A DNA stretch of 23,589 nucleotides from a virus. How positions within the stretch are numbered: position 1 is the first letter of the stretch; each line of letters begins with the position of its first letter. The position numbers and the translations under genes were made by a program. The DNA lies in UHGV virus genome UHGV-0074613; one strand, 5' to 3'. The notes beneath the pieces are model-generated. The model saw only the letters and a program-made list of their open reading frames with translations, had not been told where the DNA came from and did no database searches. Positions 12,842-23,589 of this stretch are shown here, piece by piece.

Positions 12842-13687
12842 GTGGAGAACGCTATGAACCTTGAAGCCCTACCAAAATTTTATTCACCAAAATCGCCAAA
12901 GTTGAGTGATGACGCGCCAGCAACCAGCAATGATGCATTGTCTGTGACTGATGTGATGGCTGCACAGGGGATGACACAGAACCGCGCATCATTTGGCTTT
13001 TCTGCGTTCCTGGGGAAGTTGGGGATCAGCATCACTGAAAAAGAAAAGGCTATCGCGCTTCTTTCTAATTATGCCCTTGCTCGCTGCGACAGAGTCCCGG
13101 CGCTTCGAAAATTGAGCGCTGAAATCAAGCCAAAAGTAATTCGCATTCTCGCTGTTTATGCATTCGAGGATTATTCTCGAAGTGCAAGCACTACACGAAT
13201 CTGTGACTGCTGTAATGGTGAAGGGTTTATTGATGCCGAAGTCTTCAGCATGAAAACCCACACACCAGGCAAGAATAAAGAATTTGTCAAAATGTCACTG
13301 CATATGGGCGTAAAAGATATCAAGCCATCAGCATATGAGGTGCGCAGACAAGTGAGAGAAATAAACCGCGTTCTGTGCCATCAGTGCAAAGGGAAGAAAG
13401 TAGTTAGTTCCTCATGCAACGATTGCCATGGTCGCGGTAAGGCCGTAAACCGCGAATTAACTGCAAAGCAGGGAGTACCGGTATTCACCGACTGTAAACG
13501 ATGCGGTGGTAATGGCTATGCAAGAATGCCGTCAACGGAAGCACTGGAAGCAATACGCCTTGTTACTGATGCCATTTCTCTCGATACATGGAAAAAGTCT
13601 GTGAAGAAGTTCTATGACGATCTCATTGAAAAGTTCGAAGTAGAAGAGGCATGGGCTGAAGAGCAATTGCGGCGGGTAACAAAATAA
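12842..13687 (+). CDS. Late-gene antiterminator Q (QuuQ-like)
   Basis: Last gene before the tandem terminators and lysis cassette; four CxxCxGxG-type Cys pairs (CDCCNGEG, CHQCKGKK, CNDCHGRG, CKRCGGNG). Alternative start ATG 12854. Confidence 0.65.
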   Translation: MENAMNLEALPKFYSPKSPKLSDDAPATSNDALSVTDVMAAQGMTQNRASFGFSAFLGKLGISITEKEKAIALLSNYALARCDRVPALRKLSAEIKPKVIRILAVYAFEDYSRSASTTRICDCCNGEGFIDAEVFSMKTHTPGKNKEFVKMSLHMGVKDIKPSAYEVRRQVREINRVLCHQCKGKKVVSSSCNDCHGRGKAVNRELTAKQGVPVFTDCKRCGGNGYARMPSTEALEAIRLVTDAISLDTWKKSVKKFYDDLIEKFEVEEAWAEEQLRRVTK

Positions 13688-13891: not shown

Positions 13892-14287
13892 ATGTCCGAT
13901 CCTGTTTCTGGCACTACGGTTGCCGCTGGTGGCCTTATGGGTGCCAGTGTTTTTGGTATCGCAACCGGTATTGATTATGGCGTGGTGTTTGGCGCTTTCG
14001 CAGGAGCTGTGTTCTACGTGGCGACAGCAGCAAACATCAGCAGGATGAAGTTGGTTGGCTATTTCGTGACGTCGTTTATTGTCGGCGTTCTCGGCGCGGG
14101 GCTTGTCGGTTCGTACCTTGCCAAATGGACAGGCTATAGTGACAGGCCGCTTGATGCACTCGGAGCGGTGGCGGTAGCTGCATTAGCCATCAAACTTCTT
14201 ACCTTCATCAACAGTCAGGATTTGGGAAGCCTGTTCAGTATGCTTTCGCGATTGCGTGGAGGAGGGGCCAGCAATGGTAACAAGTGA
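13892..14287 (+). CDS. Putative holin-like membrane protein (131 aa, about 4 TM)
   Basis: Gly/Ala/Val-rich hydrophobic segments; first gene after tR', directly upstream of the endolysin; SD GAGGGGG. Confidence 0.55.
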   Translation: MSDPVSGTTVAAGGLMGASVFGIATGIDYGVVFGAFAGAVFYVATAANISRMKLVGYFVTSFIVGVLGAGLVGSYLAKWTGYSDRPLDALGAVAVAALAIKLLTFINSQDLGSLFSMLSRLRGGGASNGNK

Positions 14288-14555
14288 TCCTTCAGCGATG
14301 ATTAATGCGGGTATTTGCGCGGTCATCGTACTTGCTTTGATGTTTTACCAGCGTGGCGGTGCCAGACATCGCCCGATAGTTTCTCTTCTCGCTTACTTCA
14401 CGGTGCTGGTTTATGCCAGCATCCCGTTCCGCTATCTGTTCGGCCTCTACCAGGAATCACACTGGCTGGTGGTCATCGTTAACATCCTGATATGCGCCGC
14501 CGTGCTTTGGGCTCGGGGAAACGTGGCGCGTCTTATTGATGCTCTGAGGCACTAA
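14274..14555 (+). CDS. Putative holin/antiholin-like membrane protein (about 93 aa, 3 TM)
   Basis: Three hydrophobic helices; ATG 14274 with SD GGAGGGG; stop overlaps the endolysin start. Confidence 0.55.
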   Translation: MVTSDPSAMINAGICAVIVLALMFYQRGGARHRPIVSLLAYFTVLVYASIPFRYLFGLYQESHWLVVIVNILICAAVLWARGNVARLIDALRH

Positions 14556-15166
14556 TGAACCAATCACAATTTCAACAGGCGGCTGTTATTAGCGCCGGGT
14601 TAGCTGCACGCTGGTTTCAGCCGATTACGGATGCAATGAAAGAGTTCGGCATCACGGAGCCAAAAGATAAGGCGATGTTCATTGCTCAGGTAGGACATGA
14701 ATCAGCGGGATTCTCTGCGCTGGTGGAGAACTTCAACTACACACCTGCTGCATTACTGACGACGTTTGGACGCCGGGTAACGAACTACCAGGCATCAATG
14801 CTTGGACGTGCCAACGGTAAGCCAGCAAGTCAGGAAGCTATCGCAAACCTGGTATACAGCAACCGCCTGGGTAACAAAGCTGCTGGTGATGGCTGGAAAT
14901 ACCGTGGGCGTGGGTTAATTCAGATTACCGGTCTCACCAATTACCGTGATTGCGGTATTGGTCTTAAGCTTGACCTGGTTACTACCCCTGAACTGCTGGA
15001 GAAAGACATTAATGCTGCACGTTCTGCTGCATGGTTCTACGCCTCCAAAGGTTGTCTGAAGTACACCGATGACCTGGTGCGCATCACTCAGATTATCAAT
15101 GGCGGTCAGAACGGCATTAATGACAGACGCGTGCGTTACGCCAAAGCGAAAGCGGTGATTGCATGA
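14555..15166 (+). CDS. Endolysin, glycoside hydrolase family 19 (chitinase-like lysozyme)
   Basis: FIAQVGHESAGF and YRGRGLIQITGLTNYRDCG match the GH19 phage endolysin pattern; 203 aa; positioned between holins and spanins. Confidence 0.85.
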   Translation: MNQSQFQQAAVISAGLAARWFQPITDAMKEFGITEPKDKAMFIAQVGHESAGFSALVENFNYTPAALLTTFGRRVTNYQASMLGRANGKPASQEAIANLVYSNRLGNKAAGDGWKYRGRGLIQITGLTNYRDCGIGLKLDLVTTPELLEKDINAARSAAWFYASKGCLKYTDDLVRITQIINGGQNGINDRRVRYAKAKAVIA

Positions 15167-15441
15167 GTATTGTAGAAATCATCATTGGTGTTATTGGCGC
15201 TATCTGTGTTGCCGCTGCTGGTGGGTTTGGTCTTGGCCACATTCGCGGTACCAGCAAAGCAGAAGCAAAAGCCGATCAACAACGCACTGAAGAAAACGCT
15301 GCGGCGAAGATTGCAGTGGCAGAACGTCAGGCAGAAGTAACCAGAGAGGCCAGCAATGTACAGCAGAGTGTTAACCATATGCCTGATGACGATGTTGATC
15401 GCGAGCTGCGCAAAAACTTCACCCGCCCCAGTGGTGGTTGA
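15163..15441 (+). CDS. i-spanin (Rz-like)
   Basis: N-terminal TM (IVEIIIGVIGAICVAAAGGFGLG) followed by charged periplasmic region; ATGA overlap with the endolysin stop. Confidence 0.6.
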   Translation: MSIVEIIIGVIGAICVAAAGGFGLGHIRGTSKAEAKADQQRTEENAAAKIAVAERQAEVTREASNVQQSVNHMPDDDVDRELRKNFTRPSGG

Positions 15442-15586
15442 TACCGGTTGCCTGTGGACCCGAATTATCTATCTGACCTACAGCGATATCGACGTGCTGG
15501 ATAAGCAGACGAAGCGCGACATTCTGGCACATAACAAAGCGTGGCAGGCGAATTGCCAGAAGGTGCAAGGAAATGAACATCAATAA
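15356..15586 (+). CDS. o-spanin (Rz1-like lipoprotein), overlapping the i-spanin 3' end
   Basis: Signal peptide with lipobox L-I-A-S-C (MYSRVLTICLMTMLIAS|C); SD AGAGAGG; 86-nt out-of-frame overlap with the i-spanin. Confidence 0.6.
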   Translation: MYSRVLTICLMTMLIASCAKTSPAPVVVDTGCLWTRIIYLTYSDIDVLDKQTKRDILAHNKAWQANCQKVQGNEHQ

Positions 15587-16898: not shown

Positions 16899-18362
16899 AT
16901 GCACATGCAGGTCACAATAGATGGTGTCCCGTATGCACCTGTCAATAATTCACACTCAGCGGTAGGGATCGCCATAACTACGCATAACAGACCTGATGTT
17001 CTTAAGCGTGCCATCGAGCAGCACATGAAGCATCTTCCGTCCGGTGCGCTGGTGGTCGTCATCGACGATGGCTCAAAGCCTCCCGCTGTTGTACCGGCTA
17101 ATGTAAAACTGGTTCGTCATGACCAATCATGCGGTATTGTCGCTTCGAAGAACGCCAGCCTGACCGCACTGGTGGATGCCGGGTGTGAGCATCTCTTCCT
17201 ATGGGATGATGACGCGTGGCCCATCGCCGATAACTGGCATCTTCCCTACATCGAATCTCCCGAGCCGCACCTGGCTTACCAGTTTCTCGATCTTGCTGGG
17301 CCGAGAAAGCTTAATGATATGGCCGTGCTGTACCGGGATGATAAGCACATCGCTTACACCGGACAACGCGGTGTGATGCTGTATTACCACCGCAGCGCTA
17401 TTGAGAAGGTTGGCGGTTTCGATCCGGTTTATGGTCGCGGCATGTACGAGCATCCAGATCTGGCGCTACGCATTCACAATGCCGGTTTATCGACCTGGGC
17501 GTTCGCTGATGTGGTCGGATCTGAAAAACTGATTCATTCAATGGATGAGCACGAAGAGGGTACGCGCTCAATTCCACGACCTGACCGAGAGGCGCTGGTA
17601 AAAAGAAACGTTGGCATATTCAATGCTCGCCGTGACAGCGGTTATACAGGCTTTTCCTCTTATAGCAGAAATCCAAATCTGGTGATTACGACGCTACTCA
17701 CAAGCCAGCCAGACCCACAGCGCGGCGGAAAGATGAAACCCGACCCGCAGGTTCTGCAATCATGGGCTGACTCAATATCCGGCGCACTACCAATTGTCTT
17801 GGCTGACGAATTGAAAGAGTCGCCAACTGGTGCTGGTTTAAGTGAAGTCCCGCTGGTGGACATGAGCCCATACTTTGCTCGCTGGCTTCACATCTATCAG
17901 TTTCTACGTGCGCACCCTGAGTATCACCTTGTCTGGTGCACTGATGGTACTGACGTTGAAATGTTGCGAGAGCCCTGGGCAGAAATGCAGTCGGGTAAAA
18001 TTTACGTTGGCTCAGAGCACAAGACGTATTCCGACGAATGGATGAAAGCAAATCACCACGGCAAGGCGTATAGCGATTTCATCGAGCAACATCGCGATGA
18101 ACCACTGCTAAATGCTGGCTTGTTAGGTGGTAACCGTGAAGACGTTATGGAGTTCGCGCATCGTATCATTCGTCAGTATTACCTGATTGAAAGTCATCGC
18201 TTCTGGAAGATTGAAAGAGCGCCTGAAACGAAGGTTGATATGGGTGCATTCGGCATGGTGGCGAAGTCATTTGGAGACAAGGTTATTACCGGGCCCAAGG
18301 TTCACACCATCTTCAAGTCTGAAGGCGTTGGCAAGGAGTTGGCATGGTGGATGCACAAGTAA
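16899..18362 (+). CDS. Cytoplasmic glycosyltransferase, family 2-like GT-A domain with additional C-terminal domain (487 aa)
   Basis: N-terminal VGIAITTHNRPDVLKRAIEQ...VVVIDDGS...WDDDAW (GT2 Rossmann start and DxD-type acidic motif); no hydrophobic TM segment; C-terminal half has a second TDGTD acidic motif. ATG 16905 is the more likely start (SD AAAGGA). Confidence 0.7.
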   Translation: MHMQVTIDGVPYAPVNNSHSAVGIAITTHNRPDVLKRAIEQHMKHLPSGALVVVIDDGSKPPAVVPANVKLVRHDQSCGIVASKNASLTALVDAGCEHLFLWDDDAWPIADNWHLPYIESPEPHLAYQFLDLAGPRKLNDMAVLYRDDKHIAYTGQRGVMLYYHRSAIEKVGGFDPVYGRGMYEHPDLALRIHNAGLSTWAFADVVGSEKLIHSMDEHEEGTRSIPRPDREALVKRNVGIFNARRDSGYTGFSSYSRNPNLVITTLLTSQPDPQRGGKMKPDPQVLQSWADSISGALPIVLADELKESPTGAGLSEVPLVDMSPYFARWLHIYQFLRAHPEYHLVWCTDGTDVEMLREPWAEMQSGKIYVGSEHKTYSDEWMKANHHGKAYSDFIEQHRDEPLLNAGLLGGNREDVMEFAHRIIRQYYLIESHRFWKIERAPETKVDMGAFGMVAKSFGDKVITGPKVHTIFKSEGVGKELAWWMHK

Positions 18363-18937
18363 AGTTTGTGGTTGTTGGTCACCATCTGCGCCACAAACAA
18401 GCATTAATTCTGGCTGAGTCGATAGGTGCATTACTGCTTATCGACACGGGAGATAACGGTGCTAACTGGAATCACCGCCGCGCTCTTGAATGGGCAGAAG
18501 AGCAGTCTTGCCGAGTGGTCATTTTAGAAGACGATGCAATTCCAGTTGATGGGTTCACCAACAAACTCGTTAAGTGGATTGAGCGCTTCCCTGATGCACT
18601 GGTTTCTTTCTATCTCGGTACTGGTCGTCCTCCACAATATCAACTCGATATAGCATCAAAGCTAATCGCAGCAGATAAGAGCAGAACTGATTACATAACA
18701 CTTTCACGTCTGATCCATGGCGTCTGCTACAGCGTACCGCATCAGCATATCAAGCGAGTTCTTGATAAATGGAACCACGGCAAAGCAGCAGATTATGCAG
18801 TAGGTGATGCTTATGGTGGCCCTGTTGTTTATCCATGCTACTCGCTCGTTGACCATGCTGACGGACAGCCGGTAGAACCAGCGCGAGACAACCAGCCACG
18901 TACAGAACGCCGAAGAGCATGGAGGTTACATGTCTAA
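18344..18937 (+). CDS. Putative glycosyltransferase, family 25-like
   Basis: GANWNHRRALEWAEEQSCRVVILEDDAIPVDGF resembles the GT25 (Lic2A/LgtB-type) G..SH...W + ILEDD core; start overlaps the GT2 stop, stop overlaps the HNH start. Confidence 0.5.
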   Translation: MVDAQVKFVVVGHHLRHKQALILAESIGALLLIDTGDNGANWNHRRALEWAEEQSCRVVILEDDAIPVDGFTNKLVKWIERFPDALVSFYLGTGRPPQYQLDIASKLIAADKSRTDYITLSRLIHGVCYSVPHQHIKRVLDKWNHGKAADYAVGDAYGGPVVYPCYSLVDHADGQPVEPARDNQPRTERRRAWRLHV

Positions 18938-19298
18938 ACTAAAGACACTACAGCCACGCCTTAAAGCTATCGACACGCGGCGCATCAAACCTATCTATGG
19001 TGAGCATCGTCGAGTCAGTGGCAGTGCCAGGGTAAGCCTGAAGCGACGTATCTATGTTCGCGACGGTGGTCATTGCTGCATGTGCAAGCGAGTAGTAGAC
19101 CTGCATGACAGTGAGCTTGACCACCGCATTGCTCTACAGTTCGGCGGTGACAACGATGAGCGCAACCTTTGGACGCTGTGCATCGAGTGTCATTCAGGTA
19201 AGTCATCGCGAGAAGCATCAATGAACCAGCCTGATGGTGAGGCTCTGAAGCACTCTGTGCCGAAAGATAAATCACAATCTGGCATCGTAATTCTCTGA
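18930..19298 (+). CDS. HNH endonuclease (packaging-associated)
   Basis: CCMCKRVVDLHDSELDHRIALQFGGDNDERNLWTLCIECH is an HNH motif with zinc-binding Cys pairs; immediately upstream of the candidate cos and TerS. Confidence 0.85.
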   Translation: MSKLKTLQPRLKAIDTRRIKPIYGEHRRVSGSARVSLKRRIYVRDGGHCCMCKRVVDLHDSELDHRIALQFGGDNDERNLWTLCIECHSGKSSREASMNQPDGEALKHSVPKDKSQSGIVIL

Positions 19299-19304
19299 CC
19301 AAAC

Positions 19305-19367
19305 ACCGGGGGGGTATCAGTGGGTGTCAACGCCGATCGCGCTGGACACCGCGCCCCCTCTCACGCG
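19305..19367. other. Candidate cos/packaging site
   Basis: GC-rich block between HNH and TerS: G7 run (19308-19314), imperfect two-fold symmetry GGTGTC...CGATCG...GACACC (19323-19350), C5 run (19354-19358). Confidence 0.35.
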
Positions 19368-19398
19368 TAGAAAAAATTCCCTTTTGGAGGGTGTTAAC

Positions 19399-19881
19399 GT
19401 GTTAACAGGACAGAAGCGCAAGTTCGCACAGGCGCGGATGTCCGGTTCATCCCAGGCTGAAGCAGCCCGTAAGGCCGGTTACTCCGAGAAAACCGCAAGG
19501 TCTCAGGGTTCACGGCTGGCAAAAGACCCGGATATCATCGCTTACATTGAAAAAAATGGAGCAGGTGATAAGCCTTCAAAATTTGTTGGGCTGCCAATTC
19601 CTCCATCAGCGAAGGTGGGAAAAGATCTACCCATGGAGGTAGAGCCAGTACCGACCCTGAACAAATATGAAGATCCTCTTGAATTCCTGAAATCTGTCAT
19701 GAATGACCCAACTCTTGAACTTGATGACAGAAAAGACGCAGCGAAGGCGATGCTTCCATACATTCATCAGAAAAAAGGTGAGGGTGGGAAAAAGGAAGCG
19801 AAAGGCGCAGCCGCAAAAAATGCAGCCAATAAGTTTGCCGTTCCTGCACCGCCGAAACTTGTTGTAAACAACCGGGGGTGA
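19399..19881 (+). CDS. Terminase small subunit
   Basis: HTH-containing N-terminus KRKFAQARMSGSSQAEAARKAGYSEKTARSQGSRLAKDPDIIAYIE typical of small terminase subunits; GTG 19399 with SD GGAGGG; directly upstream of TerL. In-frame GTG at 19324 gives a longer alternative. Confidence 0.75.
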   Translation: MLTGQKRKFAQARMSGSSQAEAARKAGYSEKTARSQGSRLAKDPDIIAYIEKNGAGDKPSKFVGLPIPPSAKVGKDLPMEVEPVPTLNKYEDPLEFLKSVMNDPTLELDDRKDAAKAMLPYIHQKKGEGGKKEAKGAAAKNAANKFAVPAPPKLVVNNRG

Positions 19882-19884
19882 TTA

Positions 19885-21543
19885 ATGCCAGAATGGACTA
19901 CAGCATGCCCTGACTGGAGTGAACGACTTAAGCGCGGTGATTCGATAATTCCACCACCGATTTATCCTGAACAGGCAGAGATAGCGCTTAATATTTTCAA
20001 GCAACTGAAAATAGTTGATGCGCCAGGCTCTCCAACGTTTGGTGAGTCGTGTGCCAATTGGGTGTTTGATCTGGTTGCGGCGCTTTTCGGTTCGTACGAT
20101 GCCGAAACAGGAAGGCGGCATATCACGGAAGTTTTCGTACTAATACCGAAAAAAAACAGTAAATCTACACTTGCTGCCGGAATTATGATGACGGCACTGC
20201 TTCTCAACTGGCGACAAGCTGCCGGCTACACAATTATTGCCCCAACTGTAGAAGTAGCAACGAACGCATTTAACCCCGCTCGCGATATGGTTAAGCGTGA
20301 TGATGACCTTGATGATCTTTGCCAGGTACAAACCCATATTAGGACCATTACTCACCTGGTGAGCGATACCACGCTGAAGGTTGTTGCAGCAGATGCAAAC
20401 ACTGTTTCTGGGATTAAATCAGTAGGAACGCTGATTGATGAACTTTGGCTATTCGGAAAGCAGGCAAATGCGGAGGATTTACTTCGTGAAGCGATAGGTG
20501 GTTTGGCATCTCGTCCTGAAGGATTCGTGATGTACACTACTACGCAATCAAACGAACCTCCAGCCGGTGTTTTTAAACAAAAACTTCAGTACGCTCGCGA
20601 CGTTAGAGACGGGAAAATTATTGATCCAAACTTTCTTCCCGTTATTTTCGAACACCCGCCAGAAATGGTTGCCAACGGCGATCACCTTCTTCTTGAAAAT
20701 ATGCCGATGGTTAACCCTAACTTGGGGTATTCGGTCGATGAGCAGTTTCTTAATCGTGAGTTTAGGAAAGCCAAAGAAGCAGGAGAAGAAGCATTTCGTG
20801 GATTCATGGCAAAGCACGCGAACATAGAGATTGGTTTGGCGTTACGTGCTGACCGATGGGCAGGTGCTGATTTCTGGGAGCAACAAGCAGAAAGGGTAAG
20901 TTTTGAAGAAATTATTCAACGCAGCGAGGTCATCACGGTTGGTATTGATGGTGGTGGTCTTGATGACCTACTTGGACTGTCAATAACCGGCAGAGATAAA
21001 GACACGCGAAAATGGATATCCTGGAGCCATGCTTGGGCCCACGAAATTATGCTTGAACGCCGTAAAAGCGAGATATCGAAACTGCGTGATTTTGAAAAGG
21101 CCGGAGACTTCACCATTGTGAAGCGAGTTGGTCAGGACACAGAGCAAGTTGCAGAGTACGTCAGCAGAATTTATGAAGCTGATTTGCTGGATAAGATTGG
21201 TATTGACCCGGCAGGCGTTGGGCAAATTCTGGATGCACTGGTTGAGGCAGGAATCCCTCCTGAACTGGTAGTCGGTATCAGTCAGGGCTGGCGACTTGGC
21301 GGCGCGATAATGACTACCGAGCGAAAACTTGCTGAAGGCGTCCTGATCCACGGCGGTCAGCCGATGATGGCCTGGTGCGTTGGTAACGCAAGGGTAGAAC
21401 CTAAGGGTAACGCCATCCTGATTACCAAGCAGGCCAGTGGGAAGGGGAAAATTGACCCCCTTATGGCGCTATTTAATGCCGTCTCGTTAATGGCACTGAA
21501 TCCAGAGGCGAAGAAACAAGATTACCAGGTATTTTTCATATAA
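19885..21543 (+). CDS. Terminase large subunit
   Basis: 552 aa; Walker-A-like PKKNSKST; size and position immediately after TerS; SD GGGGGTGA. Confidence 0.85.
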   Translation: MPEWTTACPDWSERLKRGDSIIPPPIYPEQAEIALNIFKQLKIVDAPGSPTFGESCANWVFDLVAALFGSYDAETGRRHITEVFVLIPKKNSKSTLAAGIMMTALLLNWRQAAGYTIIAPTVEVATNAFNPARDMVKRDDDLDDLCQVQTHIRTITHLVSDTTLKVVAADANTVSGIKSVGTLIDELWLFGKQANAEDLLREAIGGLASRPEGFVMYTTTQSNEPPAGVFKQKLQYARDVRDGKIIDPNFLPVIFEHPPEMVANGDHLLLENMPMVNPNLGYSVDEQFLNREFRKAKEAGEEAFRGFMAKHANIEIGLALRADRWAGADFWEQQAERVSFEEIIQRSEVITVGIDGGGLDDLLGLSITGRDKDTRKWISWSHAWAHEIMLERRKSEISKLRDFEKAGDFTIVKRVGQDTEQVAEYVSRIYEADLLDKIGIDPAGVGQILDALVEAGIPPELVVGISQGWRLGGAIMTTERKLAEGVLIHGGQPMMAWCVGNARVEPKGNAILITKQASGKGKIDPLMALFNAVSLMALNPEAKKQDYQVFFI

Positions 21544-21561
21544 CACACACGTCAGTTAATG

Positions 21562-21587
21562 ACCCGCTACGGCGGGTTTTTTCGTTT
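21562..21587 (+). terminator. Intrinsic terminator between TerL and the capsid gene
   Basis: CCCGC-TACG-GCGGG hairpin followed by TTTTTTCGTTT. Confidence 0.6.
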
Positions 21588-21601
21588 CTGGAGGACAGAA
21601 A

Positions 21602-23539
21602 ATGAAGCTTGACCGCGCATGTACCATCATGACGGTGAAAGCGGTGGATGAGGATAAACGGATTATCACCGGCATTGCCTCCACACCATCACCAGACCGT
21701 GACGGCGACATTATGGAGCCTGACGGCGCGAAGTTTGGCAGTGAAAACCCGTTTTTATGGCAGCACGACAGGTCTCAGCCCATCGGTAATTGCTCGGCGA
21801 AAAAGGTGAAAGAGGGGCTGCAAATTACAGCTCAACTTGTTAAGCCAACACCTGATATGCCATCGCAGCTGGTGGCCAGACTTGAAGAAGCGTGGGCATC
21901 AATTAAGTCAGGACTTGTAAAAGGTCTGTCGATTGGTTTTAAGCCCATCAAATACGCTTATCTCGACTCTGGCGGCATTCAATTCCTCGAATGGGAGTTA
22001 CTAGAAGTCTCTGCCGTAACCATTCCCGCTAATTCTGAGTGTTCAATTCAGACAGTTAAATCTTTTGACCGCCAGTTACTCGCCGCGCTTGGCAATGAGA
22101 AACGCGTGGTTAAAGCAAATCAATCCGCTGGCGCTACAGCACAAAAACAAACTTCTCAAAAAGGAAAACCAACGATGAATATCGCTGAACAGATCAAAAG
22201 TTTTGAAAACAAGCGTGCAGCGCTGGCCGCTTTACTGAATGACATCATGAGCAAAGCTGCTGATGAAGGTCGCACTCTGGATGTAGAAGAAACTGAAAGC
22301 TACGACAACACCTCTACGGAAATCAAATCGGTAGACGAACACCTGAAACGCCTTCGTGACATGGAAGCCAGCATGGCATCAACCGCGAAGCCGGTGACCA
22401 AAACTGCAAACGGTGAAGTTACTGTGATTAATAACGGGCCGTCCATCATTCGCGTAGAGCCGAAACTGGAAAAAGGTATCGCTTTTGCCCGTTTCGCAAA
22501 GTCACTGGCCGCTGGTAACGGTAGCCGATCTGAAGCCCTGCAGATTGCGAAAAACCAGTATCCTGATGACACTAAACTTCATCATGTCCTGAAAGCGGCG
22601 GTTAGTGCCGGTACTACTACAGACCCGACCTGGGCTGGCGCACTGGTAGAATACCAGGATTACGCACAGGACTTCGTTGAATTCCTGCGTCCGCAGACCA
22701 TTATTGGTCGCTTTGGTCAGGGTAATATCCCTTCTCTTCGTCAGGTTCCATTCAACGTTCGTATTCCAGCGCAAACCTCAGGCGGTTCAGCAAGCTGGGT
22801 AGGTCAGGGTAAAGCAAAACCTCTGACTAAATTTGACTTTGCCACCATCACCTTCGGTTTCTCCAAAGTGGCATCTATCGCAGTGTTGACCGAAGAACTG
22901 ATCCGCTTCTCTAACCCATCTGCTGATGCTCTGGTGCGAAATGCACTGGCAGAAGCGGTGATCGCGCGACTGGATACAGACTTCATTGACCCTGCTAAAG
23001 CGGCGGTCGCTGATGTTTCTCCGGCATCTATCACCAATGGCATCACTGCTATTCCTTCTACCGGTGATCCTGATACTGATGCTTCTGCAGCATTTGGTCA
23101 GTTCATTACGAACAACCTGCAGCCGAATGGTGCGGTATGGCTGATGTCCAGCACTACGGCACTTACTCTGTCTATGCGTAAAAACGCGCTTGGTCAGAAA
23201 GAATACCCGGATATGACCATGCTGGGCGGTACGTTCCAGGGCTTGCCGGTGATCGTTTCACAGTACGTTGGCAACCAATTGGTACTGGTTAACGCACCAG
23301 ATGTTTATCTGGCAGATGATGGTGGCGTCGCCGTTGATATGTCTCGCGAAGCTTCTCTGGAAATGCAGAGCGCTCCGACCCACGACAGCACAACGCCAAC
23401 TCCAGTTGAATTGGTTTCGATGTTCCAGACTAACAGCGTGGCAATTCGTGCTGAGCGCTGGATTAACTGGAAACGCCGCCGTGATGCAGCCGTAGCTGTT
23501 ATTTCTGACGTTGATTACAGCACTGGTTCAACCAGCTAA
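21602..23539 (+). CDS. Fused prohead protease (HK97/S78-like) - scaffold/delta - major capsid protein
   Basis: N-terminus ITGIASTPSPDRDGDIMEPDGAKF...FLWQHD...PIGN...LSIGF resembles HK97-family prohead protease; followed by an Ala/Gln-rich linker, a coiled-coil delta-like segment and about 400 aa of capsid-like sequence; SD GGAGGA. Confidence 0.7.
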   Translation: MKLDRACTIMTVKAVDEDKRIITGIASTPSPDRDGDIMEPDGAKFGSENPFLWQHDRSQPIGNCSAKKVKEGLQITAQLVKPTPDMPSQLVARLEEAWASIKSGLVKGLSIGFKPIKYAYLDSGGIQFLEWELLEVSAVTIPANSECSIQTVKSFDRQLLAALGNEKRVVKANQSAGATAQKQTSQKGKPTMNIAEQIKSFENKRAALAALLNDIMSKAADEGRTLDVEETESYDNTSTEIKSVDEHLKRLRDMEASMASTAKPVTKTANGEVTVINNGPSIIRVEPKLEKGIAFARFAKSLAAGNGSRSEALQIAKNQYPDDTKLHHVLKAAVSAGTTTDPTWAGALVEYQDYAQDFVEFLRPQTIIGRFGQGNIPSLRQVPFNVRIPAQTSGGSASWVGQGKAKPLTKFDFATITFGFSKVASIAVLTEELIRFSNPSADALVRNALAEAVIARLDTDFIDPAKAAVADVSPASITNGITAIPSTGDPDTDASAAFGQFITNNLQPNGAVWLMSSTTALTLSMRKNALGQKEYPDMTMLGGTFQGLPVIVSQYVGNQLVLVNAPDVYLADDGGVAVDMSREASLEMQSAPTHDSTTPTPVELVSMFQTNSVAIRAERWINWKRRRDAAVAVISDVDYSTGSTS

Positions 23540-23589
23540 GAAGGAGGGCGGGGGAAACCCCCATAAGCGCTAACTTAAGGGTTGTGGTA

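Follow-up and report, generated by a model that had tools for sequence, protein, structure and literature searches.

In HK97, the prohead protease gp4 and the major capsid protein gp5 are encoded by separate genes in different frames, and the portal gene precedes both. The HK97 protease is reportedly targeted via its own C-terminal tail. The capsid protein gp5 carries an N-terminal scaffolding delta domain, and there is no separate scaffold gene (for background on fused scaffold domains, see PMC10275583).

In the lambdoid prophage Gifsy-2 these functions are found in one gene. Its "tripartite capsid gene" (Effantin et al. 2010, Virology 402:355) is a single ORF of about 650-700 aa which comprises a protease, a scaffold-like middle part and the capsid protein, and among fusions of this kind it is the precedent that has been studied by experiment. 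The Gifsy-2 protease is of the ClpP/S14 type, the portal lies upstream of the gene, and there is no sequence homology to the 645-aa fusion described here.

A full-length homologue of our gene is ORF56 of BP-4795 (645 aa, 72% nucleotide identity), which is labelled "putative major head protein/prohead protease". The same gene, with this label, occurs in the Stx phages 2851, 1717, Stx2a_WGPS6 and JLK-2012 (genus Marienburgvirus and relatives). To our knowledge, there is no functional study of BP-4795-type fusion genes. The same domain logic is seen in other sequence families, namely PHROG_4523, the actinobacteriophage "major capsid and protease fusion protein" and the ClpP-gpT fusions of Paracoccus prophages, and both curators and genome announcements have recognised it. 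NF045541 (scaf_prot_MCP2, "prohead protease/major capsid protein fusion protein") is also a different fusion family; our protein scores 42.2 bits where the cut-off is 525, and only its aa 49-249 match. Fusion entries exist in JGI, NCBIfam and PHROGs. In summary, the protease-capsid fusion is a large family of known architecture that is already annotated as a fusion, and the arrangement is, contrary to the initial annotation, not unusual.

Position and architecture of the fusion gene

The stretch of DNA that we analysed (the window) is 23,589 nt long, and all features named below lie on its plus strand. Its gene content includes an integrase, an S24 repressor, replication genes, Q, holins and an endolysin. 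In view of this full lambdoid prophage arm we rejected a capsid-forming satellite (cf-PICI), which we had considered since a cf-PICI capsid is among the fold matches described below. The locus at 21602..23539 is the head-shell gene in the HK97-like head module of a lambdoid prophage, whose host is probably Citrobacter. The copy found here has 95-96% identity to database entries. The nearest relative of the fusion gene is found in a Citrobacter freundii MAG (96%).

The packaging and head module opens with an HNH endonuclease gene at 18930..19298 (122 aa; Pfam HNH, E = 4.5e-7), which has an equivalent place in an E. coli relative. It is followed by the small terminase subunit at 19324..19881 (185 aa; Pfam Terminase_2, E = 8.9e-9) and by the large subunit, TerL, at 19885..21543 (552 aa; Pfam TerL_ATPase and TerL_nuclease). 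As described in the initial annotation, a terminator separates TerL from the fusion ORF: a pattern scan finds a terminator-like hairpin with a T run at 21561..21584 (GACCCGC-TACG-GCGGGTT, hairpin 21561-21578). The same E. coli relative and BP-4795 have this hairpin in common with our locus, and in HK97 a putative terminator is annotated at the corresponding position, ahead of gp4. Of 46 non-redundant related loci, 38 have a TerL homologue immediately 5' of the fusion gene.

We were not able to find a portal gene in the window, where only 50 nt remain after the stop codon, the final 28 nt being part of an IS element; it is this element at the window end that cuts off the portal side. The portal had been expected downstream or elsewhere, and 44 of 46 related lineages have it just after the fusion gene, so that it is simply displaced. 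For example, in a 96%-identical relative (L015) the downstream ORF matches PF04860 (E = 6.5e-77). The module runs from HNH via TerS, TerL, fusion gene and (small ORF) to the portal, and the BP-4795 group shares the order TerS, TerL, fusion, small ORF, portal. In the relatives, no scaffold gene is annotated between TerL and the portal, and there is no other protease gene between TerL and the connector genes. Extensions of about 440 aa in two homologues (P0124 and P0131) were considered as fused portals and rejected, as Pfam assigns an AAA ATPase domain to them.

Just as the gp4-gp5 pair of HK97, the fusion gene is bracketed by hairpins. The second of these, which is intact in L015 (GGGCGGGGGAAACCCCGCC), is interrupted here, and comparison with L015 leaves its 5' part (GGGCGGGG-GAAA-CCCC) at 23546..23561. 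The interruption is the left end of an IS4-family, IS421-like element (CATAAGCGCTAACTTAAGGGTTGTGGTA) at 23562..23589, which begins 22 nt past the stop codon and of which 28 nt are included before the window stops inside it. This end matches exactly a multi-copy E. coli sequence that adjoins a gene for an "IS4-like element IS421 family transposase". In another related locus (L106), the copy of the IS lies in the same kind of hairpin, with inverted ends and with GGGAAACCCC as the duplicated target. The element after the gene and the host lineage, with the C. freundii MAG as the closest relative, distinguish our locus from BP-4795.

The fusion ORF has an ATG start and no interruption, and encodes a protein of 645 aa (69.4 kDa). 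Its Shine-Dalgarno sequence GGAGGA at 21590..21595, 6 nt 5' of the ATG at 21602, forms a duplex of -9.3 kcal/mol with the 3' end of the 16S rRNA. PHROG_617 matches the protein end to end, over aa 1-639 of 645 (E = 3e-223). That one ORF joins protease, linker, delta segment and capsid protein, as the initial annotation had proposed, is supported by profiles, alignments and an AlphaFold2 (AF2) model. This model was calculated from an alignment of 92 sequences (pLDDT 68) and replaces an earlier one from 39 sequences that are at least 80% identical (pLDDT 42.9).

Profiles and catalytic residues identify the N-terminus as a prohead protease of the HK97 type (S78), and this part of the initial annotation holds. 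The domain comprises aa 1-142 (21602..22027). Peptidase_S78 (PF04586) matches aa 49-153 (E = 6.3e-11, 43.1 bits, cut-off 21), and phrog_80, "head maturation protease", matches aa 1-191 (E = 3e-40). An hhalign comparison with HK97 gp4, which belongs to the same protease family, gives a probability of 97% (E = 8e-11) and places His55 (codon at 21764-21766) and Ser110 (21929-21931) on H65 and S114 of gp4, which we take to be its catalytic residues. Both residues, as well as Glu135, are invariant across alignments of 10, 31 and 92 sequences. There is no match to a ClpP (S14) domain at the N-terminus. In the AF2 model the domain is beta-rich (pLDDT 67-83). The assignment rests on profiles and catalytic residues, since a PDB sequence search with the N-terminal profile gave no match for the protease domain and the Foldseek list was taken up by capsids.

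The Ala/Gln linker noted earlier corresponds to aa ~142-191 (22028..22174), a hypervariable and A-rich stretch which is predicted to be disordered (pLDDT below 40) and shows scant conservation in the alignments. Near its 3' end the GC content is 0.32, compared to 0.51 in the whole gene. The coiled-coil, delta-like segment matches two long predicted helices, aa 194-222 and 228-260 (pLDDT ~80; 22181..22381 for aa 194-260). A flexible segment, aa 262-292 (22385..22477), is poorly conserved and has a pLDDT below 45; from the model, it is a candidate zone for the maturation cleavage, and the mature N-terminus would be expected between aa 262 and 370.

The capsid body comprises aa 293-640 (22478..23521), with a helical N-terminal part followed by the HK97 fold. 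TIGR01554 (major_cap_HK97) matches aa 203-584 (E = 2.7e-21, 76.1 bits, cut-off 27.5), a match that takes in the N-terminal region, and Phage_capsid (PF05065) matches aa 385-634 (E = 1.9e-14). The best 50 Foldseek matches in the PDB are all HK97-fold shell proteins with a probability of 1.0, of which 49 are phage, GTA or satellite capsids and one is an encapsulin. Their E-values range from 6e-14 to 1e-9, with Bxb1 as the best match (6e-14), HK97 at 1.4e-10, and T5, D3, GTA and cf-PICI capsids also present. Across most of aa 420-580 the model has a pLDDT of 65-91. A sequence search links the capsid part to PDB entry 9d9w (E = 1.4e-5). In BLASTP, the similarity between the capsid part and HK97 gp5 is not significant; the fold is the same. 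The C-terminus is therefore an HK97-fold capsid protein with a predicted helical delta segment at its N-terminal side, in agreement with the initial annotation. For some homologues, the domain PF25209 is listed as well.

Signals for a proposed internal start at Met192

The proposed nested gene (22175..23539) would begin in frame at Met192 and encode the delta segment and capsid alone (454 aa, 48.7 kDa). Its ATG at 22175 is placed where the delta domain begins. A Shine-Dalgarno sequence, AAGGA, is found at 22161..22165 (duplex -5.6 kcal/mol), 9 nt before this ATG, so that the motif AAGGA-N9-ATG spans 22161-22177. Inside the ORF, the capsid gene thus still has its original ribosome binding site and ATG. 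The BP-4795 group shares the internal AAGGA-ATG as well as the terminator-like hairpin before the gene. The Shine-Dalgarno duplex of the 5' start is stronger than that of the internal one (-9.3 vs -5.6 kcal/mol); the long form may therefore be abundant too.

Of 47 non-redundant lineages with identities of 43-100%, 46 have the internal in-frame start, as ATG in 44 and as GTG in 2. In all 46 lineages that have it, the Shine-Dalgarno duplex is -4.3 kcal/mol or stronger. The codon phase of the internal Shine-Dalgarno sequence varies between lineages, as do the amino acids that encode it, and distant clades show GAGGAGGG or AAGGAGGG at this place. Among 142 fused cluster representatives, the residue at the internal start is Met in 127 and Val in 13, compared to a background expectation of 15%. 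Five stand-alone capsid proteins start at or near the M192 residue, four of them exactly there. Finally, one relative is unfused (L099): its sequence is ...HK-TAA-ATG-TTKT..., where the frame is unchanged, TAA stands directly before the ATG, and the start has a Shine-Dalgarno sequence of its own.

Some tests of the Shine-Dalgarno sequence itself were weak. A control by synonymous recoding gave a median of only 0.19, since the motif is already specified by the residues K-G, K-E-G and E-E-G of the linker. The column-wise Shine-Dalgarno energy alone does not single out M192; the M580 column scores equally, owing to a conserved DDGG motif. It is for this reason that we added tests of RNA structure, of Met/Val at the start position, of the unfused relative and of codon usage.

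We see that the RNA is open at the internal start. The 60-nt fold around it has an energy of -3.7 kcal/mol, compared to -13.1 ± 3.7 kcal/mol (z = 2.5), and no other 60-nt stretch of the gene in the window is as open. In each of 46 lineages, the region of the internal start is less structured than the gene average. The open, A-rich region could partly reflect the composition of the linker.

A step is also found in codon adaptation. With the weights of Sharp and Li (1987), which are specific for E. coli, the CAI is 0.264 for codons 1-191 and 0.505 for codons 192-645 (permutation p < 1e-4). TerL, with 0.247, is similar to the protease part. An unbiased search for the change point in the window gene gives codon 194. 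In all 21 enterobacterial lineages the CAI is higher for the capsid part than for the protease part, and the change point lies within 30 codons of the internal start in only 9 of these 21. In HK97, where both proteins are translated separately, gp4 has a CAI of 0.333 and gp5 of 0.487, and the contrast equals that in the fusion. The Gifsy-2 gene has a candidate internal SD-ATG at M221 and a weaker rise in codon adaptation.

In the literature searched, we were not able to find a description of an internal start in protease-capsid fusions. For the Gifsy-2 fusion an internal start is reportedly not described, and as far as we know, a nested start has not been described for any protease-capsid fusion.

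Alternative readings of the fusion gene

The likeliest explanation, which we hold with good though not complete confidence, is that the reading frame contains nested genes in the manner of lambda C/Nu3. In the family to which the locus belongs, the S78 protease gene has lost its stop codon and reads directly into the major capsid gene. Two proteins would be made from one frame, a 69-kDa protease-delta-capsid protein from the start at 21602 and a more abundant 49-kDa delta-capsid protein from the start at 22175. Judging from the signals described above, the protease is probably absent from most of the capsid protein that is made. The two forms would co-assemble via their identical capsid moiety, and since they share it, the long form could take the protease into the interior of the procapsid, tethered to the inward-facing delta domain. 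A separate targeting signal would be unnecessary, and the protease dose would depend on the relative use of the two starts and not be 1:1. After assembly, the protease would remove the linker, the delta domains and itself, and the mature capsid protein would remain.

On the other hand, there could be only the 645-aa polyprotein, with one protease per capsid subunit (1:1) and a later digestion of the protease and delta domain. The single ORF and its strong 5' Shine-Dalgarno sequence would agree with this; by a rough estimate a T=7 procapsid could hold the ~415 extra 21-kDa domains, and the Gifsy-2 tripartite gene is reportedly discussed as one polypeptide. However, a single start implies equal translation of all codons, and this reading leaves unexplained why a Met/Val start, a Shine-Dalgarno sequence, minimal RNA structure and the CAI step are kept at the N-terminus of the delta domain over identities of 43-100%. 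We consider it unlikely. The idea of the initial annotation that a fused protease is incorporated stoichiometrically with the capsid protein is probably wrong, because of the conserved internal ribosome binding site and ATG, the open RNA and the two-fold CAI step at M192.

Another way to see the internal signals is as a fossil of the gene fusion, neutral or only marginally used. They are certainly inherited, since in the unfused relative the two genes differ from the fusion by one stop codon only, and the synonymous control of the Shine-Dalgarno sequence, taken alone, is not significant. However, the linker has diverged beyond recognition, yet the start has been kept in nearly all lineages and is Met or Val in ~99% of the 142 representatives. 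An exchange of Met for Val is what a start codon tolerates, and the Shine-Dalgarno sequence is re-encoded by different amino acids in different phases. A neutral relic would have decayed, and we find this explanation quite improbable.

Potentially, the N-terminal domain could be a degenerate, catalytically dead remnant of a protease that serves as extra scaffold only. The equivalog model TIGR01543 gives 51.5 bits, below its cut-off of 59, and the solved structures show no sequence match to the domain. We nevertheless give this very little credence: the Pfam S78 score exceeds the gathering cut-off, His55 and Ser110 align with the gp4 residues and are, together with Glu135, invariant in 92 sequences, and the relatives contain no other protease gene between TerL and the connector genes.

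The best 120 homologues of the protein are all 636-647 aa long, 117 of them 643-647 aa, and each one has both Pfam domains. Among representatives of 50%-identity clusters there are 14,396 matches to the 645-aa protein, and of the best 150, more than 130 are full-length fusions. The initial annotation had considered a sequencing error that hides a stop codon, and an artefact of this kind, in which a sequencing or assembly error masks a stop codon or a frameshift between two genes, has a negligible probability: one rare unfused relative and a few stand-alone capsid homologues do exist, but the uninterrupted ORF of ~645 aa recurs with both domains across thousands of independent genomic and metagenomic sequences, as well as in phage isolates and the 103 fused loci that we retrieved.

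More tentatively, and with rather less than even confidence, we suggest that the nested pair is a property of the whole S78 fusion family, that is, of thousands of prophages from Enterobacterales to Rhizobiales, in which the capsid protein would come mainly from the internal start and the full-length protein would be a minor product, and that this has so far gone undescribed. The sole task of the full-length form would then be to hold the protease on a small number of capsid subunits, in place of a dedicated targeting signal, with the two ribosome binding sites fixing the protease dose by their ratio.

Possible relation to known nested genes

The fusion itself changes nothing, as it is a common type of head module that is already annotated. 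Annotation pipelines, for their part, label such genes "phage major capsid protein" and thereby miss the protease and what is likely to be a second product. A real nested start would explain why a head does not have to package 415 copies of a fused protease. It would also offer a simple and tunable system for protease dose and cargo tethering in HK97-like shells, which bears on engineered capsids and encapsulin-like containers. Moreover, the strategy of lambda C/Nu3 and herpesvirus UL26/UL26.5 would then extend to the capsid protein itself.

In lambda C/Nu3, herpesvirus UL26/UL26.5, OsHV-1 and gp17/gp17.5 of the archaeal virus HFTV1, a long form, with protease and assembly domain, and a commoner short form from an internal in-frame start share their C-terminus, and the long form is co-assembled in small amounts. 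The herpesvirus short form comes from a separate transcript and not from an internal ribosome binding site. All these nested systems have a free scaffold protein as their short form, whereas the short product of our locus would be the capsid protein with a built-in scaffold domain. By analogy, then, the fusion locus would act like the nesting of the lambda C/Nu3 type, of which it is not a member.

The protease-capsid fusion and its homologues

The open reading frame at 21602-23539 on the plus strand (645 aa, 69.4 kDa) encodes a single polypeptide in which an S78 prohead protease, a linker, a delta region and a capsid protein are fused, as the initial annotation had proposed. In Pfam, the protein matches Peptidase_S78 (aa 49-153) and Phage_capsid (aa 385-634), the alignment with the NCBIfam model for HK97-family capsids (TIGR01554) begins at aa 203, and PHROG_617 spans the protein from end to end (E = 3e-223). 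The identity of the N-terminus is supported by a profile of the first 170 residues, which matches HK97 gp4 with 97% probability (E = 8e-11) and aligns His55 with gp4 His65 and Ser110 with gp4 Ser114. His55, Ser110 and Glu135 do not vary in any of three alignments (10, 31 and 92 sequences).

The AlphaFold model (92-sequence alignment, mean pLDDT 68) consists of a beta-rich protease domain (aa 6-141, pLDDT 67-83), a disordered linker (aa 142-191, pLDDT <40), two long helices (aa 194-222 and 228-260, pLDDT ~80), a second disordered stretch (aa 262-292, pLDDT <45) and the capsid body (aa 293-640, pLDDT 65-91 over most of 420-580). All of the best 50 Foldseek matches of the capsid body are HK97-fold shell proteins; the matches include Bxb1 (6e-14), HK97 (1.4e-10), T5, D3, GTA, a cf-PICI and one encapsulin.

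A sequencing error that masks a stop codon between two genes is excluded, as the same uninterrupted frame recurs among the homologues: each of the best 120 has 636-647 aa and both domains, more than 130 of the best 150 cluster representatives (50% identity) are full-length fusions, and the frame is intact in 103 fetched loci. The nearest relative among these loci, with 96% protein identity, is a contig of a Citrobacter freundii metagenome-assembled genome (L015). The fusion is real but ordinary: its architecture is known, and database entries include nearly identical copies. ORF56 of the Stx1 phage BP-4795 is the same gene (72% nucleotide identity); its deposited label, 'putative major head protein/prohead protease', recurs in related Stx phages. 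NCBIfam holds a separate model, 'prohead protease/major capsid protein fusion protein', and PHROGs a family named 'major head and protease protein'. In actinobacteriophages, annotators use the term 'major capsid and protease fusion protein', and one third of the Paracoccus siphophage prophages have been reported to carry ClpP-capsid fusions. Two cluster representatives, P0124 (1094 aa) and P0131 (1091 aa), have an N-terminal extension of ~440 aa with an AAA ATPase domain (PF00004) before the protease-capsid fusion; their protein sequences could be read as a real triple fusion or as a gene-calling artefact.

Module order and the end of the window

The window represents one arm of a lambdoid prophage and contains a tyrosine integrase (50-1039, minus), an S24/HTH repressor (6054-6773, minus), a replication-initiator-like gene, an MT-A70 methyltransferase, a KilA-N protein, a DUF968 gene, antiterminator Q (12842-13687), lysis genes with two holins, and a GH19 endolysin located 5' of a family-2 glycosyltransferase (487 aa, 16899-18362), as well as HNH (18930-19298), TerS (19324-19881) and TerL (19885-21543) genes. 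The glycosyltransferase and a 197-aa ORF that overlaps its gene (together 16899-18937) lie between the lysis genes and HNH/terminase, an unusual position for cargo. The 197-aa ORF has no Pfam matches. The pair is also kept in an E. coli relative, and it possibly modifies DNA or surface polysaccharides.

The initial annotation had remarked on the missing portal gene after TerL and placed it downstream or elsewhere. The portal is indeed absent there, which a conserved displacement of the portal and an insertion sequence at the window end explain. In BP-4795, L015 (PF04860, E = 6.5e-77) and an E. coli prophage with 85% identity to the window, the portal gene lies 3' of the fusion gene, with a small ORF in between. 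Since a portal homologue is found downstream on the same strand in 44 of 46 non-redundant related loci (the other two have <650 nt of flank) and TerL directly upstream in 38 of 46, this module has a fixed order (TerL, protease-capsid, portal) in lineages that range from Enterobacterales to Rhizobiales. Past the portal lies a variable, unannotated gene (L015 7490-8374, 294 aa, weak CBM_5_12 match; BP-4795 14176-15561, 461 aa, 'hypothetical'). It fills the slot of protease and capsid in canonical HK97 modules and could be a decoration or head-accessory protein.

The window diverges from L015 22 nt beyond the fusion stop codon, in the middle of the hairpin GGGCGGGG-GAAA-CCCCGCC, and then reads CATAAGCGCTAACTTAAGGGTTGTGGTA, which is the left end of an IS4-family element that occurs in multiple copies and is annotated as IS421 in E. 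coli. The window includes only 28 nt of this element (23562-23589) and lacks the downstream side; it probably stops here owing to a break of the assembly in the repeat. In E. coli, the copy that was examined (L106 2513-3851) has inverted ends, lies in the same kind of hairpin with an GGGAAACCCC target duplication, and adjoins an ibs toxin gene. That both copies sit in near-identical hairpins suggests that the element targets this motif.

Between TerL and the fusion ORF lies a hairpin (21561-21584) that resembles a terminator and has a T run; together with the one at 23546-23561, it brackets the protease-capsid unit. The unit of HK97 is likewise bracketed (3309-3335 and 5192-5213): one hairpin precedes gp4, another follows gp5, and both carry the annotation putative terminator. 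Such hairpins may be transcript-stabilising or processing elements within an antiterminated late operon.

A proposed internal start at the protease/delta boundary

Codon 192 is an in-frame ATG (22175) with AAGGA (22161-22165) 9 nt upstream, and the delta domain begins with the residues after Met192 (MNIAEQIKSFENKRAALA...). We compared 47 non-redundant lineages (<90% mutual identity, 43-100% identity to the window). An in-frame start codon is present at this boundary in 46 of them (ATG in 44, GTG in 2), in every case with a Shine-Dalgarno (SD) duplex of -4.3 kcal/mol or lower; distant clades have GAGGAGGG or AAGGAGGG as the motif (-11 to -12 kcal/mol). The surrounding linker is otherwise unalignable, and the motif is written with differing amino acids and codon phases (e.g. 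QKGKPT in the window, HKEKTI in BP-4795). Synonymous recoding served as a control for the SD but is a weak one (median 0.19), since the motif is already specified by the amino acids.

Among 142 fused representatives of 50%-identity clusters, the boundary residue is Met in 127 and Val in 13; only 15% of random 7-residue windows contain Met. Five stand-alone capsid homologues start at or near the Met192 position, four of them exactly. In an unfused relative (L099), the protease ORF ends with TAA and the capsid ATG follows at once in the same frame with its own SD, so that, in sequence terms, the fused genes are the two-gene layout less one stop codon. The L099 junction (3001-3600, 47% identity) reads …HK*MTTKTVGEQI…, with GAGGGGA as SD.

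For the 60 nt that surround the internal ATG, the folding energy is -3.7 kcal/mol, and no other 60-nt window of the gene is as open (mean -13.1±3.7 kcal/mol). In each of the 46 lineages, this region has less structure than the gene does on average (median z 2.5). Codon adaptation (CAI), calculated with E. coli-specific weights, is 0.264 for codons 1-191 (TerL 0.247, other window genes 0.20-0.38) and 0.505 for codons 192-645 (permutation p < 1e-4), and the step falls at codon 194 in an unbiased change-point search. With a single start such a step is unexpected, since ribosomes would read all codons at the same frequency. HK97 gp4 (0.333) and gp5 (0.487), which are translated separately, show a contrast of the same size. 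The capsid part has the higher CAI in 21 of 21 enterobacterial lineages, although the CAI change point falls within 30 codons of the internal start in only 9 of these.

Two predicted products and related systems

The initial annotation had concluded that the protease is incorporated stoichiometrically, one per capsid subunit. The internal start with its SD, the open RNA and the CAI step argue against this, and the claim is probably wrong. Instead, the late transcript would carry one ORF with two starts, giving a 69-kDa protease-linker-delta-capsid protein and a more abundant 49-kDa delta-capsid protein, in a ratio made unpredictable by the stronger SD of the 5' start (-9.3 kcal/mol). If both forms co-assemble through their common capsid moiety, the long form would bring the protease into the procapsid beside the delta domains, where it would cut away the linker, the delta domains and itself; aa 262-292 are a candidate cleavage zone. 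Portal, connector and tail genes would follow downstream. On the other hand, the internal start is possibly a purely historical relic, but this fails to explain its conservation over such deep divergence. In the literature readable without subscription, our searches found no description of a nested start in protease-capsid fusions, and this is the only aspect of the locus that may be new.

The ClpP-scaffold-capsid gene of Gifsy-2 (L108 22471-24561), a 'tripartite capsid gene' reportedly studied structurally by Effantin et al. in 2010, has a candidate internal start just past the ClpP domain (GAGGAG-N9-ATG, Met221). The 60-nt fold there is only -6.0 kcal/mol, and CAI goes up from 0.19-0.26 to 0.31-0.40. 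ClpP-type fusions, too, may have nested starts. The two-start arrangement proposed for the fusion gene of the window follows the logic of lambda C/Nu3, herpesvirus UL26/UL26.5 and HFTV1 gp17/17.5, which would here be applied to the capsid protein itself.
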